Below are positions 119 to 56,966 of a DNA stretch of 64,000 nt, piece after piece; within the stretch, counting starts at the first letter, position 1, and every line of letters starts with the position of its first letter. The position numbers and the translations under genes are program-made. Origin of the DNA: Okamejei kenojei (Eukaryota); NCBI GenBank assembly GCA_035221665.1, contig CM069156.1:24924001-24988000 (forward strand), read 5' to 3'. The notes beneath the pieces are model-generated. The model did not search any database, was not told where the DNA came from, and saw nothing but the letters and a program-made list of their open reading frames with translations.

Positions 119-585
119 TTTAATTCCCCTTCCCACACTGACCTTTCTGTCCTAGGCCTCCTTCATTATCAGAGTGAGGACAAATGCAAATTGGAGGAGC
201 AGCATCTCATATTTCGCTTGGGCAGCTTACAACCCAGTGGAATACATTTTGATTTCTATAACTTCAAGTAACTCCTGCATTTCCTTACTCTCCATCCCTC
301 CCCCGCCCAAGTCGCACCAGCTTCTCATTCCCACCTAGCAAACAACTAACAATGGCTTGATTCCTTTATCATTGTTACTTTTTTTGCATATCTTTCATTC
401 ATTTGTTCCATATCTCTATACATCACTGTCTATCTCTCGTTTCCCTTTCCCGACTCTGAAGAAGGGTCTCGACCCAAAATGTCACCCATTCCTTCTCTCC
501 AGAGATGTTGCCTGTCCCGCTGGGTTACTCCAGCATCTTGTGACCACCTTCGGTGTAAACCAGCTTCTGCAGTTCCTTCCTAAAC
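119..585 (+). mobile_element. Penelope-like element (PLE) 3' fragment: GIY-YIG endonuclease C-terminus plus pseudo-LTR with hammerhead-like motif
   Basis: 119-271 translates to FNSPSHTDLSVLGLLHYQSEDKCKLEEQHLIFRLGSLQPSGIHFDFYNFK*, matching the PLE endonuclease tail (LEEQHLIFRLG..QP.G.N). It is followed by CTGAAGAAGGGTCTCGACCCAAAATGTCACC at 456-486. A second copy lies on the minus strand at ~48780-49142. Confidence 0.8.
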
Positions 586-1899
586 CAATGGTTTGGCACC
601 TAGCTGCGTGTTTGCCAGTTGCCTTGAAACACACCAGGACCCTGGCTCCCATAAAATTCACTGCGTTTGCGAGATCATAAAGTAAATTAAATATTTGTTG
701 GAGTGTCACTTGTTGGAATGACATCCAAAAGTTAGAAAAAAGCTGCTAGCCCAGCAGCACCATATTCTGACTCGAACATGTAAAAAAAAAACTGCAGGTG
801 CTGAAAATCTGCAAGACAATGCATGAAAAACTGAGTAGGCCAGACAGCACTCAGCTAAGAGACCTACCGTTTCCCATCTCCAGCTACCTGGGTTTCATTC
901 TGCCCGCAGACGCTATCTGCGTGGCGTTTACATGGTCTGCCTGTGACAATTTGGGTTCCTCCAGCTGCTATGTTTCCTTACCACACCCCAAAGATTTGGT
1001 GGCAAGTAGTTTAATTGGCTGCTGTCAATTGCTCCTAATGTGCTGGCGAGGGGTAAACTCTGCGGGGAGAAGATGGGAATGTAGAATTTTGTAAAACAAA
1101 GTGCTGGGTGGATTAATTTAGCAGGCGGCATCTGTGTAGGGAAAGGATTGAATGGAGTTAGCAGGGTCCATTCCCTCCACAGATGTTGCCTGACCTGCTA
1201 AGTTACTCCAGCACTTTGTATTTTACTTATGCTTGTAGCACCGGCAGTTCATTGGATCTCCATTTAATTGTGATTTGTGTAAATGGGTGTTTAGTCAGCA
1301 TGCACTCATTGGATGTAATGACATGTTTCTCACTGAATGTCTCCAGTTGGTCTTCCTGGTTTGAGATCCTTCCTCTCTCCTGAGATGCCAGGATGAACCT
1401 GCTGAATTTTTTCGACGTATTCTTTTTATTACCATGAGTGTGCCGAGAAGGGTTGATTTAAAAAAAAAACACTTCTAATATCTATCAGCCCTTTCACACT
1501 TTACTAGTTGCAAACTATTACGTGACACCCCGAGATTGTGGACGGCTGTGCAATCTCCCACAATGGAGCAAAATGAAGGTCACATATTCATGTTCTCCAG
1601 AGATGCTGCCTGACCCGCATGAGCTACAATGATACAACTTATTTGTTGTCATTTGAACCTCAAAGTTCAAACGAAATTTGCAGTTTCTGCAGTCACACAA
1701 ACAATAAAAAGAACCGAGACACAACACAATTTACACAAAGATCCATCACAGCGAATCTCCCCCTCACTGTGATGGAAGACAAAGTCTTATCTCTCCCCAT
1801 CCTCCTCCCGAGGTCAAACTCAAGCACGTTGTGTCCAAGTTGCCCTGGACCTTTCCCACTCTGAACCAAAGATCTTTGCTCAGAACTGCTGGTGACGCA

Positions 1900-3191
<1,292 letters not shown>

Positions 3192-5705: not shown

Positions 5706-8700
5706 GGGTCGTTTTTGAGATGCTTCACCCTTTCTGCGTGGTTATCACTTCCTGTCACAAAGCTTTAAATGTCACGTCTATTTCAGAATCTTGATGTGGC
5801 CTGCTTATCAGAGTTGAGAGTGGCATTAAGGCCACAATGCTCTTACACTGCTCGTAAGAAGCTGCACACCCCTGTTTCTAGCTTTTTTTTACAGCAATGG
5901 TACATTCAGTACCTCAAATGTGCTCTAGCATTTATTAAGAACATGACATCCAGTCTTCGTTTCACTTGCCTGCTCTCTCCCTCATCCTTGACTTTTTTGT
6001 TGTTTGTCAGTCTCTGCCTTGATACATTCAGTGCTGCTGTTCTACAACTCTAACAGAATAGTACAGTGCAGGAATATGTCCTTCCACCCATCATGTCTGA
6101 ACTGACCATGATGTCAATGCAAACTACTCTCGTCTGCATACACGTGATCTATATTTCTGCCTTTTCTGCCTATAAGTACCTCTTAAATGTCTAGTATTTG
6201 CTTCCCCTGTTCATTAGCAGGTTATTCCAGGTATTTACCATTCCTGTGGGTTTTTTAAAATTGCCTTTCACATCTCTTCTAAACTTTCTCCTTCTCACCC
6301 AAACCTATACTCTCTCTTTTGACGTTTCTGCCATGGGGAGGAAAATGTTTCCGTCTACCCTACCCTTCTAATTTTATGTACTTTTATCAGGTTGTCTCTC
6401 AGCGTCCAACGCTCCAGAGAAAACAATTTTGTGGCTGGTGTATTGATATGGATGTGGAAGCAGCCAAATAATAGTTGGAATATATTGAGTCATTTCCCAC
6501 ATGGCAAACAGTAACTAGTTTGTCATTGGAGTAGAGAATTCTAGAGATTCCTGACTTTCTGAAGAAAATCCTCCTCTTTGAATTCTACAACACTTTTGTA
6601 GAAATCCTGGCAGTATTCAAGTCATCCCTTTAGGGGAAAAAAGATCTCAACATCCATCCTGTCAACTCATTAGGATCTTGTGTTTCAATAAGGTCACCTT
6701 TTATTTTTCTGAGCTACAACAAATATATAGCCTATTCGTGCAATCTTTCATTATACATTACCTTTTCGTTCCAGAAATCAATCTTGTGATACTTCCCTGT
6801 ACTATGAAAACAAGTGCATGCTTCCTTAGAAACTAATCCAAACTATATGCAGTATTTCAAGTGCAATGGTATCAGTGCCTTTGCAAAATTGCATCAAAAC
6901 ACCTCTACATTTAATGACCACATTCCTTGCAATAAAGCTAAATGTTGGATCCCTTAGCATCACAACATTTTATGATCTCAAGTAATTTAATTTAATTTAT
7001 TCTTCATTACAAATTGGATAACCAGACAATTGCATAATACTTAAATCTGCCAACTTCATGCCAAATCATTTAATCTATCTATATACCTTTGCAGGCTTTG
7101 TGCCCTTAACATATTCCGTGTATTTTTGGTATCTTCAGCCACTCTGACTACGAGACATTCCGATCATCGACATATAAATATTTGAGGCCCAGCATGTGAC
7201 GGGTTGCAGCTTACTGTTTGGCATTTGAGAAATGATCTATTACATAATTAGAGTTTTATTTTGTTGTTCCCCCATCCACATCGCCACACCATCCTCCCCT
7301 GTGCATCCTTATCTTATGAAGGAACCTTGTAGGTTGAACCTTGAATTTATCCCCTGTTAGATGCTCAAGAACTTGAGCACATTTGTCTCAATTTTTCTTT
7401 CGTAAAAGCACATAGTGATGTGCTTTCTGTAAGGTATTCAAGTCTTGGAAGCAAATAGAAGAGCTTTCATTGTGAAAGATTACAGATATATTGCAGTGGG
7501 GCATAATTCAACTCGGGGGAATGCAGACTCTGAAGTCAAATAATAGATTGCCTGCTGCCTTTAGGGCAGAAACAGGGAGTAAAGAGTAGCTGTCAACACT
7601 AGGAGAAGGTGGGTAGCAAATCACTGGGGGGGGTGTATTTTTCTGGAGTCAAAAGATTTAAATTGTGATGATACCAATTTATGAGAGGGTGAGGTGTAGG
7701 CAATACTGAAAACAACAGGAACAAGCTGTAGACTGGCATTGAAAGCCTTAACAAATAAAGTCAAATATATAAATTGAGGATAGTACATTCTGGAGCTTAG
7801 CACCCACCTAAGCAGCTGAAGAGCCAACACCTATTTGTTGCTGAGATTTGCACATGCATATTGAAAGTAGAGAAGGTTGAGGAAATTAATTGAAAACTGA
7901 ACACTTTTATTTTGAGGTGTTCCTTAACCAGAAGCCATTGCATGTTAGCAAGCATATTGAAGGTTTAGGTGCATGAGGAACAGGTTTGTAATTTTTAAAC
8001 TTCATAGAAAACAAGCAGGGAGGCCAGCCAGAAATGTGGCATAATGAATTTGAGATAATGGGCGCAGATCAAGTTTTCAACTGGAGATGAACAGGGCTGA
8101 CATTATCTGGAAATGTAAATGTTATTTATTGGAAAGTTGATGCCATTTCAGACAACGTTGCTCACGGGTAGCATCTAAATGAAAAATGAGAGAGGGTCAA
8201 GAAAATAGTATTGGGATTGTTTGTCTGGATCGCTGACCTAAAGATACTGATTTCCCACACAAGTAGCTGAGAATTTAAATTCAAATAATTAATTAAAACT
8301 GGAAGAAAAGGTTTAGCTCAAAATTGAAAGTACCAGATTGTTGTATAAACCCACTTTAACTAATGTCCTATTGTGAACTGCACTTATTTTTGCCCAAGAA
8401 ATAGAATACTGGGGAAACTCAGTAGGTCAGGCAGCATCTGTGGAGGGAGATGGACAAATGATGTTTTGGGTTAGGGCTATACTGAACTAGCAATCTAGAA
8501 GCATGGACTAAATGGAAAGATCCAAATCCGAAACCCATCATGTTAGTTGTGGAATTCAGTTCTCAAAAGTATTAATTAATTAATTTGTTCGTTCGTTCAT
8601 TCATTCAAGTCGTGATTCAGCCCAGATAATATAAATAATTTCCCCATATTCATCAATTGCGGAATATTTCGCATAATGGAAATGTTATTGCAGAAATACC

Positions 8701-9919: not shown

Positions 9920-10916
9920 TCAATAAGCGAGTTTGGTATTCCAAAAAACACAAGGAATCATGGGATTTGTCAAAGGCACTCCTGATAAACATTCTCGGCA
10001 ACTGTGTTGCTGCATGTATACAGACCTGTGCTTCATCCGTAGTCAGGATCAAAACCAGATCTCCGGTGCTACAAGTGCTGTTGAATTGCTACTGGGCCAT
10101 CCCTGTCCCCTCCCGAGTGCCCCATCCATGTCCAGGGTGACCCTGGACTGATGGGACATTGGCCCAGAGCAGTGGCAGCCAAGGCTTACAGCCAGCGCGG
10201 AGAAGCAGAGCTAACTCAATGTTCAACTCTGCCTGTCCCGCCGAGTTAACCGACAGCCCTGGACTGACGCGATACTGGCCCAGAGCAGTGGCGGCCCAGG
10301 CTTACAGCCAGCGCGCAGAACAAGAGCTAACTCAGCGTTCAACTCTGCCTGTCCCGCCAGGTTAACCAACTGCTCTGGACTGACGGGACACCGGCCCAGA
10401 GTAGTGGCGGTCCAGGCTTACAGCCAGCGCGGAGAAGTAGAGCTAACTCCAGTTCAACTCTGCCTGTCCTGCCGGGTTAACCGACAGCCCTGAAGGGACA
10501 CAGGCCCGAAGCAGTGGAGTTGGCGTTTCTTCTCCGTGCTGGCTTGTAAGCCTGGGGCAGCCGATGTCCCGCCAGTCCAGAGCTGTCGGTTAACCCGGCG
10601 AGACAGGCAGAGTTGAGCTGGAGTTAGTGCTTCTTCACCGCGCTGGCCGCCACTGCTCCGGGTCGGTGTCCCGCCAGTCCAGGGTCATCCATGGCATCTA
10701 TGCCAGCTCCCGGACAGGGAGGGGACACTCGGGAGGGAACAGGGAAGGTCCAGTAGCAATTCAACTGCGCTTGCAGCGCTGGAGACCCGGGTTCGATCCT
10801 GACTACGGATGAAATACAGATGTGTATACATGAAGCAGCACAGCTGCCGAGAATGTTTATCGCGAGTGACCCATGACCTGGGCATGTGCAGTCGTAATAT
10901 CGAACTGGCTTATTGA
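9920..10916. mobile_element. Foldback-like palindromic element with long inverted arms and ~116-bp tandem modules
   Basis: Outer arms tcaataagcgagtttggtatt (9920) / aatatcgaactggcttattga (to 10916); 9984-10135 inverted to ~10710-10860; forward modules start at 10141, 10257, 10373, 10488 and reverse modules span ~10517-10686. Confidence 0.8.
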
Positions 10917-11235
10917 TGCTTCCAATGAAATATGGGTAGTAAAATGACTGCAGAAAAGTACTTTGATAATAACATACAAAATATGGGTAAATGCAATTAA
11001 TATAATGGGCATTTGATCAATATAGACTTGGTGTCATGCGTGACTTTCAAATTACTATACAGCAATTTATCTGTAGATGACACACCACTGCAGATGCTGG
11101 AACTGGAAGCAAACTTCCGGAGGAACTCAGCAGGAGGTCTAAAAGCATCTGTAAAGGCAAAAGGGCATTTTGTGTTTTAAGCTAATATTTTATGTTTATC
11201 TATGCGATTGGTGGTGTGACTGATGTGACAGATAA

Positions 11236-14834: not shown

Positions 14835-15040
14835 GAAACAAAGAACAGCAGATGCCGGTGTACCGAAGAAAGACACAAAGTGCTGGGCTAACTTAGCGGG
14901 TCAGGCAATATCCCTGGAGAACAAGGATTGGTGACGTTTTGGGTTGGGACCCTTTTGAAAAATGGTCCCGTAATGTCACTTATCCATGTTCTCCAGGGAT
15001 GATTCCTGACCTGCTCAGTTACTCCAGCATATTGTCTTTC
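14835..15040. repeat. Palindromic PLE pseudo-LTR-derived repeat inserted into a CR1 fragment
   Basis: Arms ~14869-14938 and ~14972-15039 are reverse complements; the CR1 sequence resumes on both sides (gagattgatagg ... ttcttgattagt). Confidence 0.7.
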
Positions 15041-15754
15041 ATTGGAGATAGAAAAGTTCTTGATTAGTAATGACGTCAAAGGTTACGGGAAGAAGGCAAG
15101 AGAATGGGGTCGAGAGGGAAAAATAGATCAGCCAAGATTGAATGGTGAAGCAGATTTGAAGGGACGAATGGCCTAATTCTGGTCTTATGGATGCTAAAAA
15201 CTTGGATACTGTTTAGTGTAATCGTTAGCAAGGTATTCTAGAATACGCGGAATTAATGTGTTGAATTTTGCCTTTTTGAATACATTTGAGTAGCCAGGGT
15301 GGAAAGGCTTTAATTAAACTCTACAAAAGTGAGCTGAGTGAATGGCCTCTTGTTCAAAGTCAACTTTCCTCAGCGATGAAGACCAACACAGAAGATGAAC
15401 AGTTGAGTTACTGAGTTTAATACCAAAAATGATTAGGCACCTGAAATTACCATCGACTGTCTGTTATTGCCGCATGTGAAGCAAATTCAAAATATTTGAT
15501 ATGGGCACTACTGAAGAACAAATCTATAAATGGCTCTCTAATTTTGGATAAAAATAAGGCAAAATAAATCCGTGCTCCCTGATGAAATCCACGTCTGGAG
15601 AATGCTAGTGTTTCTGATCTATGTCTGACATTTATACCATTGTCAGTAAGTGGTGCTATCGTTGCTATCAGAATTCCATGTAATTCCTTTGTAGTACGAT
15701 ATTCCTGAATTGTGCATACCATGAGCTCATTTTGAACTACTATGTTCTCTCTTC

Positions 15755-19086: not shown

Positions 19087-21329
19087 ATACGGTAGAACTA
19101 AACCCAACAGTAGATACATATGAAACTCGTGAACCATTGAGGACTGTTCATATTTCAATTGATTTTCTTTTCTTGCAATAAAAACTCACTCGGGCAATGT
19201 TTCTGGGATTATTATCAAGCAGATGGAGACTGTTTCAAGAAAGTGAGCATAAAAACAAGTTTTGAATGACTGGCAGAAGAAATTTGACGGGCTTAATAGC
19301 TTAAACCTATTTCTCGTGTGAGTTTCTGGTTTATTGTCTTCATCCAGGATTTACCTCTTATGTTTTTGATGAAGTTACACACTATTTTTCTATTAGCTGT
19401 ATGTACAAAACTAGAGTTTTCTTTAAATGTAAAGGTTTACCAAGACGCAGCAAACTTTCTCCTATTTCTTGACATCTATTGAATATTGCTGCTTTAAAAT
19501 GAACAACCCAACTGGAAACATTTGGTTCCAAAAGTTCATAGCTGACATATTTAACTGATGTTATAAAGATGAGGAATGATCTCCAGTGAGAATGTGTTTC
19601 ACTTGAGCAGCTGGGATCAAGCTGCATGACTGGTGAGGGTTGCAATTGCTTACAAATTCTTTTAAACAGAAGACTTTGGCTGGGAACTGTTCTGCAGATT
19701 GGATTGTACACTCAGCTGCTTTTCTAATTTGGCACTCTCATCCCAACCTGTTATGACACTGTGTCCCTGAGTATAATTGAAAATGGCAAAGATTGCTGTG
19801 AATGTGACAGATGTGTGCAAAGGCAATATGTGAAATGTTTGACAGAATAAAAGCCTGAGGAATGCTGTTGCCTGCCATTCACTGACTCTTGAATTCTATA
19901 CCATATTCAAAGTTGGGAATCTACTATTATCAAGGTCCAAAAAAAAGACTGCCAATAGTTTTAAATAATTACTGGAAAGATTCTGAACACTTGGAGTTGT
20001 TTCCTTTTTTATGAAATCTTTCCTTAAAAGAATAGACTTGAATAATGGTCGTGACCATATTGCTGAATTGGACACCTCTATAGTCCTCTGCCCTTGATCC
20101 CACTGGAGTGGATGACATTCCCAAGCATGCTTGTTTGGAATAGGGGCCTGTAGAATTCTAATAGTGGTACTGCCCTCCCTGAGGGTGCACTCTTCCATTG
20201 ATAAGTTTGTTGCAAAAAAATCATGGTAGTTCCACTTCTAAGAATCCTACCATGATATCCAATTATTTGGCATTACTTTATTCAGATCTTGCACTTAAGT
20301 TCTCCATTAGACTAACATCTGAGGTCAGCAGGTTAGTGTTGGAATGTGATGTGTGCTGATTGGAATGCTTTCTGGTAACTGTTTATTGCATTGACCTTAA
20401 GAGCCAAGGACAATCTTGTGCCTACATCAGGTATTTTTCAATTATTTTTACCAGTTGCCGCCTTTTCCTAATTTTTGGTGTTGACTCCTTATTGGGGTGA
20501 TTTTGGGTGGTATGGCACCTTTGTCCATTTAATTTCTCTATGTAAATTAATTTGTGAGTCTTGTATCAACCAGTGAAAAGTAAAAACTTGCTTTTAAACT
20601 GGAATTTACTCTGTATAGTAAAAATGCAGTTGTGAATCGATGAATAAATTTATGGAATGCATTCCCTTCTTTGGGTGTGGTCCTTGATTCATCACATTTT
20701 CTACCTATCAAATCCTACTTTATTCAATGACCAGACAGACCATAAGTCATGTACTGTATCTTTTTTATTAAATTGCCTTAAGCTTAAGTTGATGATTTTG
20801 TTGGCTTTGAGGAAGGTTAAATGTTTATAACATTTCAACAATAGCAATGTAATTCCAGGAGGAAAAGATTCAATTTACTATCTATCTGCACCCATCTATC
20901 AATGCCCATTCTCAATTAAATCCATTTATCACGTCTGTTTTGCATTTATCCACGTCCCTTCACAGATGCCGCTTGGTTTGCTAAGTTCCTCTAGCACTTT
21001 GATTTTTGCTCAACGTTCCAGTATCCGTAGTCTTGCCTCCATTGGGCAAACTTGGACTTCTTATTTCCCTGGAACTCTGGAACTAGTTGTTTCCACCACA
21101 TCTTTTAGTTGCAATGGTTGCCTTTAACCATATTGGGCAATTACATTACTTGAATCACCTACTAGGACATATTTTGTATGTTGGAGAAAAGTGGAGCACC
21201 TAACGGAATGAATAAAGTGAGGGAGAGAACTTACAAACTGCGTCCACACTGTGTGAGCGCGCGTGTGTGCATCTTTAAAGTCTTAAATGAGGGAGGGTGA
21301 ATAAGGCAAAATGAGCGGCAGTTGCAGCT

Positions 21330-21830: not shown

Positions 21831-22003
21831 CTTTGCCTCTTCACTCCAAAACTTCCATGGCAATAGTGAGGCATGGGAGAAGGGAGGCAAGAGCTTCGGT
21901 GATGGGGGAAATTCACTGACACCAAGTTGTACATGCCTCTTGCATTAAAGACTGCCAAAGTCCCAAACAGCTGCACTTCCCCACATTATTGAAATTATAC
22001 CAG

Positions 22004-24161
22004 CCAAAAGTCAGCAACATGCATTGAGATTGTATATCATATTGAACATGGTGTTATAGTATCTTGATTTAGTAAAGAAGTTCAATATATTTTATTGATG
22101 TTAGCTAATAAACATATTATGAAAAAAGAGATAATTTTAAAAAGCTGTCAATATGAAGATTAATAAGGTTCTCGAGGCAGGGGGCGATACACTGAACATA
22201 GGACAGATTTACAAAGGGAATTCCAAATCTCAGCATCTTTGTAACAGAACACATGAACAAAAGTTGAACATAGAACCCCTTTAAAGAGGGACTAATCTTC
22301 TATCTCAATGCCATGCTACCATACCATCTTCACAAATCTCAATTTGCACAATTACTATGAGGTATCAAATATAGCAAATGAGCTTCCACATCCCTCATGG
22401 GCAGAACATCCTGGGATTAGTGACCCAGTTCTAAAACTCCAGCCAGGTAACATCAACCTCCATGTCAATTTTCGATTTTAGCAAGACCAATTCTCACTTG
22501 TTTAATTCTCACTGTAAGGGTCTAGACTGCATGGTTTATTCTCGCATGACAAACCTAGTGAATCTTCACTGCATTGCCTCCATTGCAATCATATCCATCC
22601 TTGTGTATGGAAACCAGGAGTGGTCCCACAAGGGTTACATTACACCCTCTTGCAATAAATAGAGGACAAAGTATCATGGACCTTTTAATCTGCTTGTTGT
22701 ATCTCCACATCAACTCCGAACAACGGTGATAAACTTATCTGCATTCCATTTATCACTTTAACCCCTTCAGCCTCAACACATTCAAGGCACGAGTCCCACA
22801 ATTGTGGCCACCCCAATTCTAACTACTTGATAATTACAAGTCATGCGTTTGTTGCAAAGCTCTGGAATTCCCATCCAACATTAAAATCCTTTTTAACCAT
22901 GCATTTGATTATATTCCCCAATACATGCAAAGGATGATCACCCTGGATAAGGTATAGAAGGGCCAAGAAATATTAATATTTCACAAGAACAAAAGTCGAG
23001 GCACAGCACAGAAAATTGGATCAGTTTAGTCAGTGTTCATCACCAAAACCAGGCAGAGATAGCACAAGTTGGATGCAGATTGCTGCTCCCTCTGCACTGT
23101 CCTGTCACACACTTTCACAATAGGGACATTGTGGTTAATTGCAGTTTCTTAAAACTGATCATGACAATCTTAATATTTAACGGCCATGACTCAGCAAAGT
23201 ATTAAACAGGATACTTATCTAGCAACATTTTCTCAGGGAAAGGCGTCAGACGCTTGAAATCCAGCAGGTCCAGACTGATAAGTCACTTGTCTGTTACTAT
23301 GTCCTTGCATACCAAGTTGAAGGAAAGCTGGCTGCTATCAGCAACAGCCACATAAAGTATGTCATTCCACAAAGTGGGCAGCCATCACAATACGTGTTGA
23401 AGAAGGAACTGCAGATGTTGGAGAATCGAGGGTACACAAAAGGCTGGAGAAACTCAGCAGGTGCAGCAGCATCTAAGGAGCGAAGGAGATAGGCGACGTT
23501 TCGGGTCGAGACCCTTCTTCAGCCATCACAACACCCTGTTTCTTTAAGGAAAAGCATTGTTTTGTTCCTAAAACAATCGCCAATTAGCTTCGCCACCTGA
23601 ACATTGATATTTAAGATGAGTTTTGGATTTACATCTGGGACCATGTGGGGGGATGGAAAGCGAAAGAAGAAATGTCTACTTCAATTATTTTCAATATTCT
23701 ACGTCAAGAGTGTTTTATTGTCCCAGATAGAACAATTAAATTCTTACTTGCTGCAGCACAACAGAATATGCAAACATAGTACACTGTAAACAATATGATA
23801 CACAAGAGAGAATAAAGTTCAGTGTGTGCGCGCGCAGCACTAATATCTTTTTCTTTGCACTACCTGTTGTACTTATGTACGACTAAATTATACTCACATA
23901 TAATATGATTTAACAGGTAGCACAAAGTTTTTCACTGTATCTCTGTACATGTGATAATAATAAACCAATAACTTGTCTCTATGCACCCAAAGTATAATAA
24001 TTAAACATGAAACCTCTTTTTAGAGGCAAATTATCTCTTTTTTCATAATATGTTTATTAGCTAACATCAATAAAATATATTGAACTTCTTTACTAAATCA
24101 AGATACTATAACACCATGTTCAATATGATATACAATCTCAATGCATGTTGCTGACTTTTGG
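22004..24161. repeat. Perfect 134-bp inverted duplication (22004-22137 vs 24028-24161)
   Basis: ccaaaagtcagcaacatgcattgag...gaaaaaagagataattt is the exact reverse complement of aaattatctctttt...ctgacttttgg; arms 1.9 kb apart. Confidence 0.93.
23391..23522 (-). mobile_element. Short PLE-derived insertion with intact hammerhead core and 12-bp TSD
   Basis: Direct repeat cagccatcacaa at 23379-23390 and 23520-23531. The minus strand reads CTGAAGA-AGGGTCTCGACCC-GAAAC-GTC-GCCTAT. Confidence 0.78.
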
Positions 24162-37635: not shown

Positions 37636-38429
37636 ATGCACCAGTTACCAATAGACTGTAGTTACTCATCAAGGCTCCTTCAACAACACTTTCCCACAAC
37701 AGTGACCTCTAAAACCTGTAGAGCTATTTATTGAGGCAACATAATCTTCAAATTCCTCTCCAGGCATGGAAATAATCAGTGATGGAAATGGGTTTAGGAA
37801 CTAGGGGTACGCTGAGGTCTGTGAGGCTGAGGTTGGGAAGGTGGGGGCGTAGACGCTATAAGCCCCCCGTGAGAATTTTTTTAATAATATGATAAATTTC
37901 AGGGCCATTTTGAGCCTCTATGCACTGGGTATGATGATTACATACACATTGTATCAGTAACTCAGTAAAATAAAGATAGGTATCTCAGTAAGGGAAGCTG
38001 GTCGGTGATTGGTCGCAACGCACCTCCGAGACTGTCTGATTGGCTGCCGAGTGACCAGCGCATTGTGTGATTGGACACAATGCCCTTGGAGACAACGGCT
38101 GATTGGATGGGAGGAGACTGATTTGTTGATTGGACGGGAATTTTAAGGGAAGCTGGTCGGTGATTGGACGCAACCCCGATTATTGGCCGCCAAATAATCG
38201 GGCACAAAAAATTGACAAATAGGAAAACAAAAAAATAGGAATTCCGATTTAAATCTGATATATGGTTCATAGGGTGGGTATCGATTAATTCTAGACAACA
38301 GATTTAAAAAAAAAAATCTAACCTCATTAAGTCACTCGGGGTGTATTCTACAGTATGAAGTGTACAGCAAAACTTGCACTTCCAGAGTGGTCTATTGTGT
38401 TGTTTCTTCAGCGGACCATGGATTTATTT

Positions 38430-38630
38430 TAAGAGCAAAACATAAAGTGCTGGAGAACTCAGCAGGTCAGGCTGGATTTGTGGTGGGTCCGAAGAAGGGT
38501 CTCAGCCCAAAACGTCACCTATTCCATCTCTCCAGAGATGCTGCCTGACCCGCTGAGTTACTCCAGCATTTTGTGTCTATCTATGGAGGGAATGGCTAGG
38601 CGACGTTTAGGGTCGGGTCCCTTCTTCACG
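38430..38630. repeat. PLE pseudo-LTR-derived inverted repeat cluster with two hammerhead-like motifs
   Basis: tgggtccgaagaagggtctcagcccaaaacgtcaccta (38484-38521, +) and taggcgacgtttagggtcgggtcccttcttca (~38597-38628, -). Confidence 0.7.
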
Positions 38631-40544
38631 TATATTTTAAGGGTTGGGAAAGATTGAAAATTTCACGTATTTAAATATGTTGTTACGAATATAACTAGTA
38701 GTGTGGGAGAAAATTCCATGTGCCATAATTGCCACATACATACCCAAAAGTAGAAATGTAGAAAGTTACAATGTGTAAAAAATGATATAACGAGCTTCGT
38801 AGTCTCCTAACAATCAAACGCCAAATTCAAAATTCTATATTTTGAAAATGGGCAAAGCAAAAAGTAGCATGTTCTCTAGAAAGGCTTATCCTAAAATAAT
38901 TGATCGGAAGCGGTGTGACTTTCAGGGAAGTCTGTATCATTCAGTCAGTGAGCTCGCGGTCCGGAGCCCTTCTCTATTACCCCTCTACATAAAAACAAAG
39001 TGTCAATGCCTCTACGAATCCACCCGTAGCTTAAGTTGCAGGTTCAGCCATGATCATGCACCTATTTTCTATGATTCTATACAGCTGAAGGGATTTGGCG
39101 TTCGGGCACCGCTATGAATTTATATGAATTTTAAAAATCCGATACGTTTAAATTGTTCAAAAGCTACAACCACAATGTGATAAATAACACTAAATAAAAC
39201 TGAAACAAATAAAGTCAAACAGAAGAACTAACCTTGAAGGTGAGAGAGAAAACAACACACATATACTTTTTTTTAAAAATCATATAACATCCGTAAATGA
39301 CAGGTACAAATTACTAAATAACGTGGATGGAGAAAAATGTTTGTCTACCATTTTTGTCTACCTTTGATTGTTCCAGCATTTGCAGTTCCTTCTTAAAATA
39401 ACGTGGGTGAATGAGTGTACCTGCACACCAGGAAGAAGCCCGTGCCCGCGGTCCAGAGCCCTTAATGACAGTAAGTTTTAAGAAATTCTCCTGTGAATTT
39501 TATTCAAAGAAACGCGGCATCATTAATACATGGTCAAAACACAATTACATTTACTGGGTGTGAGCAGTCTTTGAATATGTTGGTTGTTTTTCAGAGTGAA
39601 GGGGAGGCTGGTTTGTGTGATGGACAAAGGTGTAACCACAACTCTGCAATTTCTTGTGGTCTTGGTGGCTAAACCAAGCTGTGGAGCATCCCAACCGGAT
39701 GTTTTCTACGGTGCTTTTTTGTTTGCCGTTTGTGGGATATTGGCAGAGTTTACTATGCTGACATGGTTAAATTGTGCAATGTGACTTCATTGTAATTTCC
39801 CCATGAGGGTAGACTGGATATTGAATGCATGTTATTTTTCCCAGACAGTAGGAGATTTGAAATATAGCCAAGAAATGTGGATGCTGGAATCTGGAGCAAA
39901 ACAAAATAACTGCTGGGGCAACTCAAGAGGCCAAGTAACATTTGTGGAGGTCAAGGGAAGTTTGATATTGCAAGTCATGACCCTGCATTCGGATTGAATG
40001 TGTGGAGGGAAGATAGCCACGATAATGAAGTGAGAGGGAGGGTGACAAGCTGGTATGGGATAGGAAAAATCAGATGAGGTGGGGACTGATGGGCAGATGG
40101 AGAAAGGTGGATAGGAAGCAGCTTGGTGGCAGTGTGGTAGGTGATGGTTGAAAACAGATTTGGGGAAAAAGGAAAAGGGAACCAATGTTTGAGTGAGGGG
40201 TAAAACATGGGATGAGATTTACCTGAAGCTGAAAAAAACTGATGCCATCAGCAAATGTAGCAACCATACCTTCAGTGCTTCATTCAAGTCATTTATATAC
40301 CATGATCAATATGATCAGCCATGGCGATGCTTGCTTGAAGGGCCAAATGGCTTACTCCTGCATCTATTTTCTATGTTTCTGTTTTTATAAACAACAATGA
40401 TCACTGTGTCACACCACCAGATTTTCTGCTGACTTGCTCTCCCTTTGAATTCAGGAACTACAATGTTCATACAGGACTGTTTTGGTCCCTGGATGACAGG
40501 GAGGGAGAAAATGGAGGGACAAATGTTCCACCATCTAGGGTTTA

Positions 40545-41770
40545 TGAAGGAACTGCAGATGCTGGAAAATCAAAGGTAGACAAAAGTGCTGGAGAAACTC
40601 AGCGGGTGCAGCAGCATCTATGGAGCGAAGGAAGTAGGCAACGTTTCGGGCCGAAACCCTTCGAGTAGTTCCTGAAGAAAGCAGAGAGGGGCGAGCAGGT
40701 AAAATATGGTTGACAGTAGGATTCTGTTGCAGTTAGTGGAGATGGTGATGGGTGATGTGCTGGATACAGAGGCTGCTGGAGTGAAAGGTGAGAATGAAGG
40801 GAATTCTCTCTTGTTGATGGGTGGGGCGGGGGGGGGGAGATGGGCGAGCGCAGACGCCTTAAGAAATGGAGAAAATGCAAGCAAGGGCTCCAACTATGGT
40901 AGAGGGGATGGCTTTTCAAAAAGACCCCGATTGGAAAGCATAATTTTGAGAACAGATGTGGCAGAAAAGGAAAAACTGAAGGATTTTTACTTGCAGCAGC
41001 TTAACACGCCTGTGAACACAATACACATTGAGAATACATAATAAACAAAAAATCAATAAAGAAGTGTAATCAAGGTAGCTGTGGGAGTAAGTGAATTTGT
41101 AGTAGACAATGCACCAAGAATTTCAGTGTTCCATTCCCGCTGCAGTTCCTTGTGTCAACACAAGAGACAAGACAAGAGACATTTATTGTCACATGCACCA
41201 ATTGGTACAGTGAAATTTGTGGTCACCATACGAATAAAAAAAGAACACAGAACACGAGAGTCTTTAACACAAACATCCCCACACAGCGGGATCAAAGTTT
41301 CCCACTGTGAGGGAAGGCACCAAACTTCAGTCATCCTCCTCTGTTGTTCTGTTGTTCTGTTGACTGTCGATGGATAATTTGTTTCCTGAGGTGGAGACAG
41401 AGATCCATAAAAGGGAGCAAAGTGGTCAGAAATGGTCCAAGTGAATCTGAGGACGGGATGGAAGTTAGCAGCATCCCCGTGGGTGCAGGAAGCAGCACCA
41501 ATGCAATCCTCAATGTGGCAGCGAAATAGTTGGGAGCGGATGCTCGAGGAGGTTTGGGACGCGGATTGTGCCTCGCAGGCAGTGAAAAGACAGGCAAGCT
41601 AGGGCTCAAGCAAGTGCTTGTGGCTGCACTTTTGATTTGTAGAAAGTTGGAGAAATCAAACAAGAGGTTGTTGAGAGTAACAAAGGCTCTGCCAGGTGGT
41701 GAGCTTGTTGGAGTTTTTCTGGTTAGATCTTTGTGTGTGGTATGGAATGTGATCAATGTTGACATTCCAG
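40545..41770 (-). mobile_element. Fragmented Penelope-like element including RT core remnant, interrupted by other repeats
   Basis: Minus strand ~41370-41770 reads TLNNLLFDFSNFLQIKSAATST (PLE-type N.F.F...FLQ.KG.AMG) and HIEDCIGAASCT (degenerate YIDD); pseudo-LTR repeat at ~40545-40665. Confidence 0.65.
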
Positions 41771-43279
41771 CTTAAAGAATGAGTTCATGAGTCAAGAATG
41801 TTTTATTGTAATATGTCCCCAAACAGAAAAATTGAATCCTGACTTGCAGCAGCACAACAGATATGTAAACCTAGTACGAAGAACTAATTCGAGGAATTGG
41901 TCAGCTCGTATCAACATTAAAGAGAAGGTAAGGTGTGAAATCAAATCGGTTCATAAATTAATCCCGTGGTGAAGGCAAATTTCTGCCCCAGAAATTGTAA
42001 TATGATTCAATTTTATCTTCAGTTTGAGGAAAATAAAATGGGTCCAAGATTAATATTTAAGACTTAAATACATGCAGCTAAGGGGGATGACAGTTGGATG
42101 AGCTAGCTGGGTTGAGATTGGTCAATCAAGACATAGTGGCAGACATTTAAGGAGATCTGCAGAATGCACAAATCAGATTTGAAAGAGAGAAAAATATACA
42201 AACAGCGTATCCACCATATGTGGTTCATTCAAAACGTTGATATTATCAATGCAAAGATAGTTAAGACAGAATATAAACATCAGAAAGAGTGACACATAAA
42301 AATAAACGTGGAATTAAAAGAAAGACACAAGAAACTGCAGATCATGGAGTCTCGTGCAAAACGTAAAGTGCTGGAGGAACTCAACAGGTCAGGCAGCATC
42401 TGTGGCGGGAATGGACAGGCAATGTTTTGAATCCATCTGAATGGACAGGCTGGAACCATCTGAAGAAGTTTCCCATTCTGAAAGGTCATGTCGATACACA
42501 TGTGGCCTGACCAGTTGTGTACCTCCAGCACTTTATGCTCAAATGTGGAATGAAGTGACCCAGTAAAGGAGAGCAGTAATATATTTTATTTTAAGAAAAT
42601 AATAATGAGCATAGGTCCTCTAAAACATACGGAATTAATAACAGAAAATATGGAAATGTCTGATGGATTAAACAGGTATTCTATGTCACTCTCCACTGTA
42701 GAGGATCCAAATAATATCCTAGAAAAAGCTAAGTTAGAAATTGGAAGGAGAGAAGAGAGGAACATGGGAACTTAGTGGGAAGCTGTACGGAGCAGATTAT
42801 TGGGGCTGTGGGCTAATGCGTCCTTGCATCCTCATAGACATCACCTGGGGATCATAAATAAAATAGCCAGTGCAAAGGTTGATGGTTGGCTTTAATTTTC
42901 CAGAATACTTCAGATTTGGGAAAGGTTCAATTTGATAGGAAAGTAGCAAATGTAGTTCCTGAATTCAAAAAGGGAGCAAGTCAGCAGGAAATCTGGTGGT
43001 GTGACACAGAGATCATTGCTGTTTATAAAAACAGAAACATAGAAAATAGGTGCAGGAGTAAGCCATTTGGCCCTTTGAGCGAGCACCGCCATTCAATATG
43101 ATCATGGCTGATCATATTGATCATGGTTTATAAATTACTTTGAGAAATTTGCTGATGACATGAGTTTTTTTTAAAAAGAGATATAGATTGCAGGTAGATG
43201 GGACTAGGGGAAAACAAATGGTCGGAAGGGCCGAGAGGCTGTAATTGTGCTGTAATTGTTATATCGTTATATGGTTATT

Positions 43280-47099: not shown

Positions 47100-47714
47100 T
47101 CCCTCCTACATCTCTCTGCTTCAATGTATCTCACTTGGTTTACACTCAATCCTTCTCCATGGTTCAGCTCAGTGGGGCTTGTGTTGTCCGGCACCATTAA
47201 AGCAATATCAAATCTTCTCCGATCTGCCGAGGTAGCTCTGACCACACACCACTTATCTCCTTATTCGGCCAAGGGGAAATGTTTGGTGGTGTGGGCTCAA
47301 TTTCCACGAGGTTGCTGAGAATGCCATGTCCTTCCACTGAACCCATTGATTCCCAGCTGCAAGTGAGCTCTTGATGGATGTAAAATTAACCTTAATGTAC
47401 AGAGGGATCTTTGGGTGATATCCATTCCTTCCCGAAAGTGGTAGCACAAGTAGATATGGTAGTAACGGAGGTGTATGGCCGCTTGCTTTCCTCGGTCATG
47501 GCAACATCTTGGTGAATCTCCTCTGCACTCTCTCCACTAACCCTCTGGAGGGAAAGGTTCTTCCACAGATGCCTTCTCAACCTTTAACTCCCCACATTAA
47601 ACCTCCGCTCACTGGTACACACCACTGTCATTGGGAATGGTTTCCGACTATCATGGTTTTCTACACTTCTGTCACGTCCTCCCTCAGCCTAGGAAAACAA
47701 ATCCAACCATTGCA

Positions 47715-47845
47715 GGAAGGAACTGCAGATGCTGGTTTAAATCGAAGATAGACACAAAATGCTGGAGTAACTCAGCGGGTCATGCAGCATCTCTGGAGAG
47801 AAGGAATGGGTAACGTTTTGGGTCGAGATCCTTCTTCAGACTGAT
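47715..47845 (-). repeat. PLE pseudo-LTR repeat with hammerhead-like motif
   Basis: Minus strand cagtCTGAAGAaggatctcgacccaaaacgttaccca. Confidence 0.7.
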
Positions 47846-48779
47846 TGTAACTGATCTAACCATTGCAGTCTCTCCTTGTACCTGAATTGCTTCAACCCAA
47901 GTTGTTGATCCTGTTGAATTTCCCCTGTGCTCACTCCAGTGTAGTCACATCCCGCTGCAGTGTGGCAACTGGAGCTGCAGACAGTACTCCTGGCACAAGC
48001 TAATTAACGTGTTATATTGTATCATAATCACTCTGGCATCGGTCCACAGTGGCACAGAATGGTTTTAAGGCATTATCCCCTTGGTCTCTCTCCCTAACTA
48101 AAGAAAATGGGTTCTCCCCACCCATGTAGCCTCCTTCACTCTTCCTAAACACTTCACATCACCCCTAACATTTTATACTCAAGGGAAAACGGGTTCCAAC
48201 TGTACATCTTTTCCATGGGGCCGTGATTGTTCAGTAAACCCAAGTCGTACCTGTCAAGGGAGATCACATCTTCCTGTGCATTGGGACCCAATCCGAGCGT
48301 GGACATTCCAAGTGATGGTGACAACCTTGCACCCCTGTCCTTCTGGATGGTGGGGCCACGGGCTTGGGAGATGCAGGTGGAGCAGCCTGGCTGGCTAACT
48401 ACAGTGCACACAGCGCCACGGTGCTGGAGGGAGCGAGAGTTCAGGGTGGTGGATGGGTGCCAGTCAACAGGGTTCACTTGTGCTGGATGGTGTCGAGCTT
48501 CTTCAGCTGCACTCTCCCAGGTCCATCACATTCCTGACTCCTGCCTTTTCAATGGTGGAAAAGTCTTGGAATGTCCGAAGGTGAAGGCTACAGATGGCAA
48601 GTGGAAGGAACCCTGCATGTTGACGCCTGGATAAAGAGGAAAACTGATGCATACGGTTTGTATCTAAACACAAGAGACTACAGATGCTGGAATCTATTAT
48701 AAATAATGCAAGAGCAGCTAGACAAATTCAACGGCTCAGGCAGCATCTGGAAAGTGAAATGGACAGTCAAAGTTTTAGT

Positions 48780-49142
48780 AAGGAGGAACTTCTGATGCTG
48801 GTTTAAACCAAAGATAGACACAAAAAGCTGGAATAACGCAATGGGACAGGCAGCATCTCTGGAGAGAAGGAAAGGGTCATGTTTCGGGTCGAGACCCTTC
48901 TTCAGACTGGTTAGGGATAAGGGGAATCGAGAGATATAGACGGTAATGTGGAGAGATAAAGAACAATGAATGAAAGATATGCAAAAAAAGTAACGAGGAT
49001 AACGCAAACAAGTTGTAGGATGAAAATAAGAAGCTAGTGCGACTTGGGTGGGGGAGGGATAGAGAGAGAGAGAGAGGGAATGCTGGGGCTACCTGAAGTG
49101 AGAGAAATCAATATTCATACCACTGGGCTGTAAACTGCCAAA
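48780..49142 (-). mobile_element. Penelope-like element 3' fragment (endonuclease tail plus pseudo-LTR with hammerhead motif)
   Basis: Minus strand encodes GSLQPSGMNIDFSHFR*, followed by sequence homologous to 275-585, including CTGAAGAAGGGTCTCGACCCGAAAC. Confidence 0.8.
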
Positions 49143-51199
49143 CCTTTAAGTGGAGATCCTTCAGCTCAATGAAAGGTCTCATCCTGAAAGGTTAACTGTT
49201 CATTTCCTCCCACAGATGCTGCCTGATCCACTGAGTTCCTCCAGCTGCTCTTGATGTTTGGTAGGTACAGAGCATTGAAACACCGGAGACCTTTTGTCAG
49301 CAGTGAAAATGTGGGCGGGGGATGGAGGGTTCTTTAAAAAAAATTGGTATGGAGAGGTCAAGAAATATCAGTGGCAGATAAAAATATTTAAAATCCCAAG
49401 CATATCACAAGTGAGCGGGAAACAGGGAAAGAGTGGGACTCATTAAAACACAAAGGGGCAAACTGTAGATAGAGCCAGGGATTAAAGGAATACCTTTCCT
49501 TTAATCCAAGGAAAGGAATAGCTTTCATCTGTATTCACTCAGGCGAAAGACATTATAATTGGACTTTTCAGTTGGAACGTTGAAATTTCAGAACGTGTTA
49601 AGGTTCAAAAAAAGAGGAGATATTGGATATCTTCACAGGCACAAATGCAGATAAATCCCCAGAGCCTGAAGTAGGTTCCCAGGCTGCTGTGGGAGGCAAG
49701 GAGGAGAATACTGGGGCTCTGACAGGCATATTTAAATGGTGACACAAGAAACTGCAGATGCTTGAAACTTGAGCAAAACATAAAATGCTGAAGGAACTCA
49801 GTGGATCAGGCAGCATCTGTAGAGGGAGATTTTGGAGAGGGACCCTTTTTTCAGACTGATGTGACGCGCCAGATGACTGGAAGAAGAAGATGTGATGCAC
49901 AATTGGGAATGGAATCCTGTTCCTTTCTGCATCAGAGAGTGGGGGAGCTAGACAGTCCATTGAAAATTAATTAGTACCGGTGTTAGCGGTCATGGGGAGA
50001 AGGCAGGAGAATGGGGTTAGGTGGGAAATATTGATCAGCCATGATTAAATAGCGGAGTAGACTTGATGGGCCGAAGGGCCTAATTCTGCTCCTATCACTT
50101 ATGAACTGTAAGTTCAAAACCGAGTTGAGTAATTTTACTAGATAAATACTGTGCGATAGGATTGCTCTCGCAGGCATTATGGGCCGAATGCCCTCCTCTA
50201 CATCATAAGGTCACATGGAAATATAAGCTTAATGGTTGCAGAGGGGAGGCAGGTAAACAGTGTTGGGGTATTGGCTAATGAGTACATGACCTGACAGAAC
50301 TGTGGGATAGGCTCTAGGGACTGTGGCTACCCACTACTCTCTTGTGGTTTCACTGACGATCAGCACCAAAGGAATGTTGAATGAGAGATGCTAAGCAATT
50401 CCGCATCATGTTCCAGGAGGGAGAAACCCCGAGGAGGTACAATCCCGCCCGCTACTATCTTCCTTTGGCACCTGTTCTGCAGCCCGATCCTGCCTCCAGA
50501 ACTGGGCTTGGACGAAGGTACCAGCTGCCAAAGCTGGTGGTTACACCTCCTGACCAGCCTCGCCCACGGGATCTGCACCGTTTAAAAACAGTCATGTCAG
50601 AGACCTCGGCAAATCACAGAGCAATGACACAAGGCATCACTGGTGCTTCCAAGCTGCACAGATGGCGATGAATACATCCTGCAGACTCTCTGGAGCTGTG
50701 AAGGATGAGAAGTGAGCTCATTGAAACAGCAAAATGTTTTCTGAGGGCTTGACATGGTGGGAGCTGGCTCTGCCGACTCGAGCCTGTTTCATCGCAGCAA
50801 TAAGGGCATTGTCTGTCTGGGATCCACCTTCCCTCAAACCCTGCCATTCCCCCCGTGAGCACACGTCGATTATTGTCACCGTCCAGCTCAGCGGGGGGGG
50901 GGGCAGGGGGACACATGAAGGGGAGGTCCAATTAATTATATTCCTCAGCAAAAATACATTTCTCCTCATCTCAGTACTGAGGTTTCTGTCTGAATTGTTT
51001 GTGGATGGTATCGGTGCAAATGATAGGAGGGGCGAGGGGATTTAAGCACCGATTCTAGCATCGTGAGGCAGTGATCTCAGTTGGGCTATACCCCAACTAA
51101 TAACTTCTTGGTGGGCAGAAGAAGGCTGTATAACCAGAGCAAAAACATATATAGGAAACACCAAGAATCTGGCACTCTTGGATTTTGGTGGTGCCTGGC

Positions 51200-53678: not shown

Positions 53679-55991
53679 TTTGTTAAATATTTTTATTAGA
53701 CGTAAGTACATATTAAAAGAATATACTTGTCACATACATTCGTAATATTATTAATATTAACAATTATGACTTATTTGTATTTCTATATATTTTTTTAATG
53801 CAGATAGGAAAAAATAGAGAAAAATAAAGTAAAAATAGAAAATCAAAAAAAAAATGAGTGGAGTGTTAAACAGGTTATCCATCATTGGAGATATATCCAT
53901 GATTTGTTATATATGATTCGTCATCCATTCCTTTATTCAGGCTTCAGTCAGGCTCTCACACCGAGCCATTTTGACCCTTTAAATATTCAATAAATGGAGA
54001 CCATATCCCTCTGAAAAGATCCAACTTGTCCAGTAGGACAAGCCTTAATCTTTCCAGATGAAGTGTCTCCAATCCTGTAATACACATTTTGGTTGTGGGG
54101 ATGTAGGACCTTTCCAGAATTTCAATATTAATTTTTTCCCAACTGTAATCAATAATAATTCTTTGATTCGTTGTTATTAGTTGATCTGTTTCTAATATTC
54201 CCAATATTATTAATTTTGAGTCAGGGATCAGATTCATATTAACAACATTTAAAATTATCTTAAATATTTCTGTCCAAAATTTAGTAATTTTTATACAATT
54301 TGTAAATGAGTGCGTTAAATTAGCTTCTAAGTGCTGACATTTATCACATATGGCAGATACATTTGAAAAAATACTATGTAATTTGGATTTTGAATAATGT
54401 TATCTATGTAATATTTTAAATTGTATAAGAGAGTGTCTAGCATTTAACGAACAGTGGTGTATATGTTGTAAACTTTCATCTCATACTTCTGGTCTGATTA
54501 TTTGACCTAATTCGTTTTCCCATGATTGCCTATATATTTCTGTCATTGGGACATCGTTTTCCAATAAAATGTTATAAATATATGATATCAATTTTTCTGT
54601 GTTTGGATGTTTATTTAGACATTCATCTACAATCTTCTGTCTTTCTATTTCTGATTTCTTGGGTGTTTGCTTTTACATAGTCTCAAATTTGTAAATATTT
54701 AAAGTAATCTTATGAATGTAATCCATAAATTTGTTGAAATTCTTGAAATGACATGAAGGAGTTTTCCCTATAGAGATCGCCCATCTTATTAATTCCATAG
54801 TTTTTCCATTGTAAAAAACCTTTGTCCATGATTGAAGGTTTAAATGTAACGTTATTTAAAATGGTATGGGCTGTGGTATACATTTCAATTTTAATGTTTT
54901 CTTTATTTGTTTCCAGATACATATCCCACTTTCTATTATAGGATTTTCACTATAGATTTTTTTACCTCGTTTAATATTAGCGAATAAAATCGAACTAATT
55001 TCAAAAGGCGAACAATCTTTTTTTTCCATTTTTAACCAGATTGGTTGTTTATCTGTCTCTACTAACCAAAAATTCATATTTTTTAATATTAACTGCCCAG
55101 TAATAAAACATAAAGTTTGGCAATGCTAGACCTCCATTTATTTTTGATTTACATAAATGTTTTTTATTTATTCTATAGCTTTTATAATCCCAGATAAAGT
55201 TGGTGACTATAGAATCAACCTTCTTAAAGAAATTTTAAGGAAGATATATCGGAATCAATTGGAAGAGAGATAGTAATTGCGGGAGAAAAATAATTTTTAT
55301 TGCATTAATTCTACCTAGCATTGAAATAGGTAATGTTTTCCAATATAAAATATTCTTATTTAATTTATTCAATAAAAGTGGAAAATTGGATTTAAATAAA
55401 GAATCGAATCTTTTTGTTACATAAATTCCAAGATATTTGATTTTTTCGTTTGCTATCCTTAAAGGGAAATTGTTGTAGTATATGTAAGTTATTTACCATT
55501 ATTGACATAAGTTCACTTTTATTCCAATTAATACTATATCCTGAAAATATTCCAAATTCAGTTATTAATTTTAGTAAATTTGAAATACTAATTTCCGGCT
55601 TTGTAATATAAAGTAATACATCATCCGCATATAAGGAGATTTTATTTTCAGTATCTCTGGTGTCATACCCATATATTTCAGGATGTAATCTCACATGTTG
55701 AGCTAATGGTTCTATTGCAAGTGCAAACAATAGCGGGGATAAAGGACAACCTTGTCCTCAGCCTCGGAATAAATTAAATTTAGTTGATAGCATTTGATTT
55801 GTTAGTATTCTGGCTGTTGGATTAGTGTATAATAATTTCACCCAAGTAATAAACTTCTCTCCCAACTTAAAAGTTTCCATAACCGAAAACAAGTAAGACC
55901 ATTCCACCTGGTCAAAGGCTTTCTCCGCATCTAACGATATAATTACTAGGTCTTTATTAATACCTCTTTTCGAATATATAATATTGAATAT
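53679..55991 (-). mobile_element. L1-clade LINE ORF2 3' portion, 5'-truncated, with TSD
   Basis: ISLDAEKAFDQVEW...QGCPLSPLLFALAIEPLA...KISLYADDVLLYI...FGIFSGYSINWNKSE; C-terminal CDKC...H....C knuckle; A-rich tail. 18-bp TSD tgtacattttcattttct (53661-53678) / tgtacactttcatcttct (55992-56009) with 2 mismatches. Confidence 0.9.
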
Positions 55992-56966
55992 TGTACACTT
56001 TCATCTTCTCTTTGCATCCTACACACAATCGACTTGCCCACGCATCAAACACATATACATTACTCTTGGTCCTTCCTCCATTTCATTGAGAAGATTGTCA
56101 AGATTGAGAATATCTTCTCTTCGGGCTAGCGGAATCAAGGGGTATGAGGAGAAGGCAGGAATGGCGTACTGATTGTGGATGATCAGCCATGATCACATTG
56201 AATGGTGGTGCTGGCTCGAAGGGCCAAATGACCTACTCCTGCACCTATTGTCTATGTATCTATTTAACAACTGAATCTCCTGCACTGTTCCCTCAAGCAG
56301 AATCTGGTGCACACTGCCCTCTTCTCACTGCCACCATCGGACAGGAGATACAGAAGCCTGAAGTCCCACAGCACCAGGTTCAGGATCAGCTACTTTCCTA
56401 CAACTATCAGTTTCTTGAACTGACTTACACGACCCTAATCCTACCTCGGCAACTGAACACTTCGAAATACTGGCATCTGAAAAAGGGTCCTGACCCAAAA
56501 CATCGCCTATCCATATCCTCCAGAGATGCTGCCTGCCCCGCTGAGCGACTCCAGCACTCTGCATCGTCTTTTGTAAATCCGCATCTACATTTTCTTGTTT
56601 CTACATTTCATCGCCGAGTTACTCCGTCACTTTGTGTTTTGCACAAGACTCCAGCGCCTGCAGTGCCTATGTCCCTGACCACTGCAGACCACCTCATGCA
56701 CTACCATGCACTTGGTTTCTCATTGTGTTTTGCACTAATATCTAATTTTTTTATCAAAATATTTTTTTCTGCAGTCTTTCTCTTTTCACTCTCTTGCAGA
56801 ATGTATGTGTGATTTATGCAGAATTTATGTTTTTGTGCGCTGTCTGAGCCTAGATGCCAGTGCTGCTGCTGGAAGCAAGATTTTCAATGCGTCTGTACCT
56901 CACTGCACTGACATGACAATAATCTCAATTTGACTTGAGATGTGATGGAAGCAGGTACTCTCATAA

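Follow-up and report, generated by a model that had tools for sequence, protein, structure and literature searches.

Dispersed hammerhead-bearing repeats of Okamejei kenojei as probable 3' ends of Penelope-like retrotransposons

Minimal hammerhead ribozymes have been described in the pseudo-long terminal repeats (pLTRs) of metazoan Penelope-like elements (PLEs; Cervera and de la Pena 2014, PMC4209133), and further related systems are the hammerhead of D. virilis Penelope (PMC4209133; promoter in PMC2377424), that of Poseidon_Ac from Anolis (Frangieh et al. 2024, PMC11167929), and the non-LTR retrozymes of animals (PMC7229834; bioRxiv 2026.07.22.740005). Here we analyze 64,000 nucleotides of Okamejei kenojei DNA (assembly GCA_035221665.1, contig CM069156.1, positions 24,924,001 to 24,988,000; the window), in which a short repeat with a hammerhead motif recurs in both orientations, together with samples of the same genome. 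The motif resembles the PLE ribozymes in its CUGANGA core with one extra nucleotide, its G10.1-C11.1 pair, its loopless palindromic helix III, and its NUH triplet, and also in the U-rich sequence upstream, its place in both pLTRs, and its many solo and opposite-strand copies, which in other animals have been ascribed to truncated PLEs (PMC4209133). We conclude, with a probability of roughly 0.85, that the repeats are the 3' ends of PLEs (a pLTR with the minimal hammerhead motif, plus a tail), likely of the Neptune clade, and that they probably arose when reverse transcription by the elements' own reverse transcriptase (RT)/GIY-YIG protein ended early. This kind of motif has been known since 2014; what the genome adds is its unusual abundance.

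That abundance is evident from direct counts. The 28-nt core is present in 48,215 exact genome copies (24,302 and 23,913 on the two strands; control, 0), and an nhmmer profile of 32 natural copies (E up to 1e-3) finds 24 matches in the window and 295 in a sample of 80 evenly spaced 10-kb pieces of the genome (800,000 bases), compared with 0 in the same samples reversed; the reversed and shuffled controls rule out a chance origin of the motif. The matches cover 28,441 of the 800,000 sampled bases (about 3.6%), and extrapolation to 2.76 Gb gives ~1.0 million copies, an estimate in which fragments are counted as copies. These numbers support the original prediction that the motif is among the most abundant short repeats of this genome, and all ten motif positions and strands that it listed are borne out. 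The genome holds at least 46,000 intact cores, compared with roughly 4,000 for coelacanth and 9,000 for Xenopus (PMC4209133). An Rfam scan of the window returned no hammerhead family among 21 matches at E up to 10.

Most copies in the genome are short and decayed. Among 171 sampled copies that cover the core, 64 retain the full set of core letters and 104 carry a CpG transition at G12 or at the helix III CpG, in agreement with the CpG damage that had been anticipated for most copies; the commonest letter is kept in 1,061 of 1,444 cells at CpG columns of the motif and in 1,599 of 1,735 at non-CpG core columns. Since the non-CpG letters of the core decay like those of the tail (conservation 0.922 versus 0.926), we see no sign of selection on inserted copies.

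The connection to PLEs comes from coding sequence. Two window copies (at 456 and 48906) stand behind the coding tail of a PLE GIY-YIG endonuclease, as had been proposed, and the same 44-aa tail closes the RT-GIY open reading frames (ORFs) of three genomic loci (L131, L181, and L238); it has 92,540 candidate matches in the genome, 150 of them scored, and no Pfam match when searched on its own. At L181, pLTRs lie on both sides of a 780-aa open RT-GIY frame with DKG, YIDD, and GIY-YIG motifs, with a long interspersed nuclear element (LINE) inserted in its 5' part; Pfam finds RVT_1 (E 2e-6) and GIY-YIG (E 3e-4) in it, both below the Pfam cut-offs, and a PDB sequence search with this protein gave 0 matches. 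A single ORF with RT followed by a C-terminal GIY-YIG domain, as in this frame, is the layout of endonuclease-containing (EN+) PLEs, as are pLTRs that arise from a tandem or partial tandem arrangement, which we find as well. In a young family (2,154 candidates, with 99-100% identity in the body past the tail among the 40 scored), ORF pieces are flanked by two same-strand hammerheads with a spacing of 3.95-3.98 kb at 7 of 20 loci (L237, L238, L241, L242, L246, L247, and L248), and L231 is a tandem with hammerheads 4.07 kb apart. The full element runs pLTR, ORF (DKG, YIDD, a Cx4CxxC linker, GIY-YIG), pLTR, its hammerheads lying about 4 kb from each other. The motif is within the pLTR, as minimal hammerheads of PLEs are; it follows the stop codon by ~237 nt and precedes the ATG by 162 nt. 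A Cx2-5CxxC linker separates RT from endonuclease in all 3 ORFs checked; such a Cys linker occurs in Nematis too (PMC8557442), and from these sequence motifs the carrier elements likely belong to the Neptune clade. As a separate observation, a splice-donor-like AAG/GTATG site located 35 nt past the tail overlaps the ATG (L181, about 8340; L248, 2579-2585), and core with tail could serve as an exon that runs from CAG to this donor.

The short copies align colinearly with the full-element pLTR and carry its subfamily letters, and their 5' ends vary. Their 3' ends fall at two fixed points ~35 nt apart: among 36 young-type copies, 18 end at +62..67 and 8 at +98..105 past the cleavage triplet, and the 10 with shorter extensions, in what is an ungapped measure, are broken by indels or belong to other subfamilies. 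This spacing corresponds to the optional 30-40 nt tail of PLEs, which has been linked to two internal RT starts, shown in vitro for the Anolis PLE (PMC11167929). Poseidon_Ac likewise has, downstream of its hammerhead, a pair of 3' end points separated by a few dozen bases, and there uncleaved RNA serves as template, as we infer here; it differs in that its ORF starts inside the hammerhead, whereas here the ATG follows C3 by 162 nt and the Cys linker is of the Neptune type. A head-to-head inverted partner accompanies 107 of the 295 sample matches and a tail-to-tail partner 12 of the 295; several inverted junctions are centred on small palindromes, such as TCAG-T-CTGA at the core edge, and would thus fit self-priming, which has been discussed in PMC3846280. 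Among short copies picked by hand, 7 could be tested for target duplications and 4 of them have one of 8-16 nt (the longest in the control was 7); 3 further copies lack the tail end. Solo-LTR recombination or later deletion is disfavoured as the source of short copies, because the target duplications adjoin the core's 5' edge. In the mechanism we propose, RT would start at two 3' points, copy uncleaved RNA through the hammerhead, and most often halt at the 5' edge of the core, with self-priming giving rise to head-to-head pairs.

The 5' ends of the short copies define a boundary at this edge. Among 94 tail-anchored sample copies 63 reach the core, and 39 of these 63 end within -7..+3 nt of C3; the stop hazard per base is 0.056 in this bin, compared with 0.002-0.010 upstream and 0.006-0.017 within the motif (binomial p 3e-15 when tested against 0.017; each inverted pair enters twice, and the bin was picked after the data were seen). 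The profile of 5' ends used 44 reference sequences, and a few of the 39 boundary copies belong to subfamilies whose untranslated region (UTR) the panel lacks; in the young family, for which the UTR is known, 8 of 12 sample copies end at -4..+10, and 30-mers from the tail number 47,697 copies versus 16,625 for the UTR next upstream of the core, a ~three-fold difference. Cleavage is not the main source of the 5' ends of short copies. Upstream of the stop we find target DNA or an inverted copy, with no shared exon.

Judged against the initiator consensus, the CAGT before the core can be read as a transcript start, and the reading of the boundary that we favour, inferred from this pattern, is that the short copies are run-off products. 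Spelled out in full, this proposal is tentative: a promoter would start RNA at CAGT, RT would prime 90-130 nt downstream and run off the RNA 5' end to leave strong-stop-like cDNAs, and stem I of the hammerhead would have been lost to the overlapping initiator, so that the motif would either serve as a signal for promotion or RT or act in trans alone. Promoters have been described in pLTRs (PMC2377424, PMC3846280). The sequence also occurs in assembled contigs of 8 public runs, most of them only presumed to be RNA, a form of data that carries no information on transcript starts, cleavage ends, or strand. The boundary would also be compatible with a splice site, a lariat, or a structural stop.

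The predicted identity of the motif as a minimal hammerhead stands: it has CUGAAGA-A, a 4-bp helix II closed by G-C, a loopless palindromic ACGU, and GUC or GUU. The predicted 5-bp helix I does not, as source elements have 2 bp, and the UGGGU taken as a helix I strand in the copy at 38484 is the junction (38484-38488) with an inverted fragment (38487-38437); that copy also has C at U4 and A at G12. Among 84 distinct copies with a GIY tail upstream, contiguous helix I amounts to 2 bp in 63, 3 bp in 4, and 0-1 bp in 17, with pairing frequencies of 88% at 2.1/1.1, 86% at 2.2/1.2, 6% at 2.3/1.3, and 7% at 2.4/1.4; two extra pairs past a 2x2 mismatch are feasible in some subfamilies. In the genome-wide intact copies that keep both pairs (n = 46,210), position 2.3 is occupied by A 37,911 times, by G 4,051 times, and by C or T 4,248 times, and only with G, i.e. 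in 4,051 of 46,210, is a third pair possible. The outcome that was to count against a ribozyme, a genome-wide consensus lacking helix I pairing or the GUH triplet, together with no self-cleavage of monomer or dimer RNA, is therefore half reached, helix I being only 2 bp in the source elements. The published minimal-hammerhead descriptor has a helix I of at least 3 bp (PMC4209133), so we file the motif as a short-stem form like the D. virilis variant and not as a descriptor match. In other respects it agrees with that descriptor, since CUGANGA(N)...GAAANNUH with palindromic 15.2-16.2 is kept across subfamilies and the 4-bp helix II with its G10.1-C11.1 closing pair lies within the range of 3-7 bp; the only variation seen in helix II is a one-sided U-A/U-G change, with no double compensatory change. 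The D. virilis Penelope hammerhead shares the 2-bp helix I and an AG-ending, pyrimidine-rich stretch 5' of it, and differs in having a 6-bp helix II with a bulge, a palindromic loop III of 2 nt, and an intron that is proven, whereas our helix II is 4 bp and splicing is hypothetical.

Because helix I is 2 bp, cleavage of the source-element motif, if any, would require either a dimer or the protein of the element. Cleavage as a dimer is reportedly the subject of a paper by Lunse et al. Given the 2-bp stem, self-cleavage of such copies is doubtful, and nearly all dispersed copies are predicted to be inert.

The short stem raises the alternative that the source-element motif is no longer a ribozyme and survives instead as a signal (promoter, splice, or RT binding), a view that concerns the ribozyme step only, is compatible with a PLE origin, and strikes us as possible though on the unlikely side. 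It would account for a helix I of 2 bp across the sampled subfamilies and for copies that extend through the cleavage site, and it accords with the conserved CAG behind pyrimidine tracts, which fits an initiator or a 3' splice site. A search for a longer-helix family (GUC/GAC helix I descriptor, designed after ray repeats) gave 0 intact matches in the genome, also in line with this view. Helix I adds no predicted stability (-4.2 kcal/mol for the fold with 2-bp helix I versus -4.8 for helix II alone, with a helix I pair probability of 0.05 or less), although folding programs do not model hammerhead cores. Against a purely signalling role, the core letters, G10.1-C11.1, ACGU, NUH, and the two pairs of helix I (U-A or U-G, and G-C) stay constant while the UTRs diverge widely between subfamilies. 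Moreover, D. virilis Penelope, also with a 2-bp helix I, cleaved once helix III was extended (PMC4209133), and the Anolis PLE hammerhead cleaves only with protein (PMC11167929).

The opposite possibility, that the hammerhead is fully active and its helix I is completed by splicing, with an upstream exon joined at CAG supplying the 5' strand, appears improbable. The U-C3 start is indeed immediately preceded by CAG, the pyrimidine-rich tracts in front of this CAG vary from one subfamily to another, and the D. virilis intron ends at helix I (PMC4209133, PMC2377424). However, 30 copies with G at 2.3 share no upstream exon, their upstream sequence being only inverted copies, point variants, and flanking DNA (a weak argument, in that PLEs keep introns in genomic copies), and no GT..AG joint to the CAG site is found among the joints listed from contigs of the 8 runs.

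The original prediction went further and suggested a separate non-autonomous, retrozyme-like element. Such an element would be a 100-130 nt retrozyme- or SINE-like (short interspersed element) unit, transcribed from its own copies and moved in trans by the PLE protein, and we regard it as very unlikely. The sharp 5' boundary, the target duplications around short copies, the very high copy number, and the older tail types that have no GIY link in the sampled loci would all suit such an element, and retrozymes do derive from pLTRs (bioRxiv 2026.07.22.740005). The animal retrozymes, found in one chondrichthyan (bioRxiv 2026.07.22.740005), are likewise pLTR-derived, hammerhead-bearing, non-coding, and abundant, but they form tandem arrays with a complete hammerhead per unit, and the copies here are dispersed singles or inverted pairs, mostly without a complete hammerhead. 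None of the 295 sample matches in 800 kb is overlapped by a Tandem Repeats Finder array with a period of at least 40 (rare arrays elsewhere are possible), no cleavage-to-cleavage monomer was seen, and the young short copies closely match the full-element pLTR, with variable 5' ends; the claim of a separate element is thus unsupported. A same-strand neighbour lies within 400 nt of 59 of the 295 matches. A minisatellite at L030 (61-190) and L032 has four units of 66-nt period, made of the stretch of pLTR that begins with GAAAC and ends at the first 3' end point; these tail-derived tandems speak for a separate element, but they lack the first half of the core (CUGA) and helix II, and they are possibly an early step towards retrozyme-like arrays.

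Several observations weigh against an origin of the repeats as PLE 3' ends, or against parts of it. The Neptune assignment rests on the Cys linker and DKG motifs rather than on a tree, and none of the 20 young loci has an uninterrupted ATG-to-stop ORF (longest, 1,008 aa). Four tail types are GIY-linked, and for three older ones no GIY-linked copy is present (0/29, 0/12, and 0/10) in a set of GIY-linked loci chosen with two families as query and hence biased; a non-autonomous origin is therefore possible for these three. Near the cleavage site, 11 of 91 copies begin at +25..+33, and 9 of these 11 are inverted, so that some cleavage is possible. Finally, a short, independently transcribed element would also fit the sharp 5' boundary.

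This genome offers two handles on what the hammerhead does in PLEs: a very successful, still young family with a stem I below the published descriptor, and copies for which the cleavage site is a much rarer stopping point than the 5' edge of the core. Should this edge be a transcript start, PLEs would flood genomes with solo and inverted pLTRs, needing neither recombination nor a separate parasite, and if the run-off reading is true the genome would preserve a vast fossil record of how PLEs prime and terminate. The main text and one searched supplement of PMC4209133 contain no shark or skate term, and its other supplement may hold cartilaginous-fish examples; among titles and abstracts, with subscription papers and Repbase outside reach, we found none on skate or ray PLE hammerheads, on the core-edge boundary, or on a Penelope strong-stop with a hammerhead.

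Within the window (Table 1), the core is intact in just one of the ten copies originally listed (23522, minus), and the hammerhead is whole in none; the nine others are missing G12, G8, U4, C3, or the cleavage triplet. A descriptor search of the window for core, helix II, and NUH gave this single match, without helix I. The same copy is bordered by a 12-nt duplication and lies antisense within a CRK-like gene. The inverted pair folds as a single long hairpin, and the copy in the truncated element on the minus strand (48906-48879) has a core intact through GAAAC, with its cleavage triplet lost; a plus-strand copy (49169-49247) is directed away from the 5' end of that element. Decayed PLE RT and linker remnants lie upstream of the GUU-type copy (about 40700-41600).

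Table 1. PLE-derived features of the window, with positions counted from its first base.
Feature	Position	Strand	Details
C-terminal coding tail of PLE GIY-YIG endonuclease	137..271	+	44 aa + stop, from translation; 5'-truncated element
Pyrimidine-rich 3' UTR, upstream part of pLTR	272..455	+	homologous to 48907-49090 and to UTRs of GIY-linked loci
Minimal hammerhead motif, broken	456..483	+	A at G12, T at 15.2
Downstream pLTR and tail	484..584	+	to second 3' end point
Head-to-head inverted pair	14840..15041	.	14956-14840 minus, 14956-15041 plus; both cores broken
Young-family copy	23397..23522	-	intact core, helix II, and GUC; starts at C3, hence without helix I
Three-piece cluster	38437..38628	.	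inverted tail fragment 38487-38437 minus; broken copy 38489-38588 plus; core fragment 38628-38579 minus, tail-to-tail
GUU-type copy without core start	40541..40662	-	
Copy beginning at CAGT	47712..47843	-	A at G12; helix II broken
5'-truncated element	48779..49142	-	GIY tail about 49142-49092, UTR, core 48906-48879, tail
Older copy	56476..56597	+	A at G8 and G12
Further fragments 1-6 of 12, mostly older or core-less	1169-1252, 1576-1688, 8376-8471, 11087-11156, 20955-21030, 39344-39396	+, +, -, -, +, +	nhmmer
Further fragments 7-12 of 12, mostly older or core-less	39870-39987, 42329-42433, 42459-42539, 48673-48751, 49746-49850, 58849-58955	-, -, +, -, -, +	nhmmer

The window also contains features unrelated to the repeat. 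The young-family copy is enclosed by 139-nt inverted repeats (21999-22137 and 24028-24166; 99% complementary, 1,890 nt apart), which likely mark a young DNA transposon. The CRK-like adaptor gene lies on the plus strand (2373-3140 and about 26033-26170; SH2 and SH3 Pfam matches), with its first 256 codons in one exon and the second SH3 exon 23 kb further on; mammalian CRK has an intron within the stretch matching these codons, and the gene may have undergone intron loss. On the minus strand, 24334-25674 is a 446-aa open frame with a Cys/His knuckle and a nuclease-like end, without a Pfam match, which we take to resemble the C-terminus of a restriction-like-endonuclease non-LTR element. A structure like a miniature inverted-repeat transposable element, with 160-nt inverted arms enclosing a 116-nt tandem repeat, occupies 9977-10868; a GC-rich long hairpin of short repeats at 60168-60319 gives sub-threshold microRNA matches in Rfam; and a LINE reverse transcriptase fragment (RVT_1, E 3e-22) lies at 36977-37708 on the minus strand.

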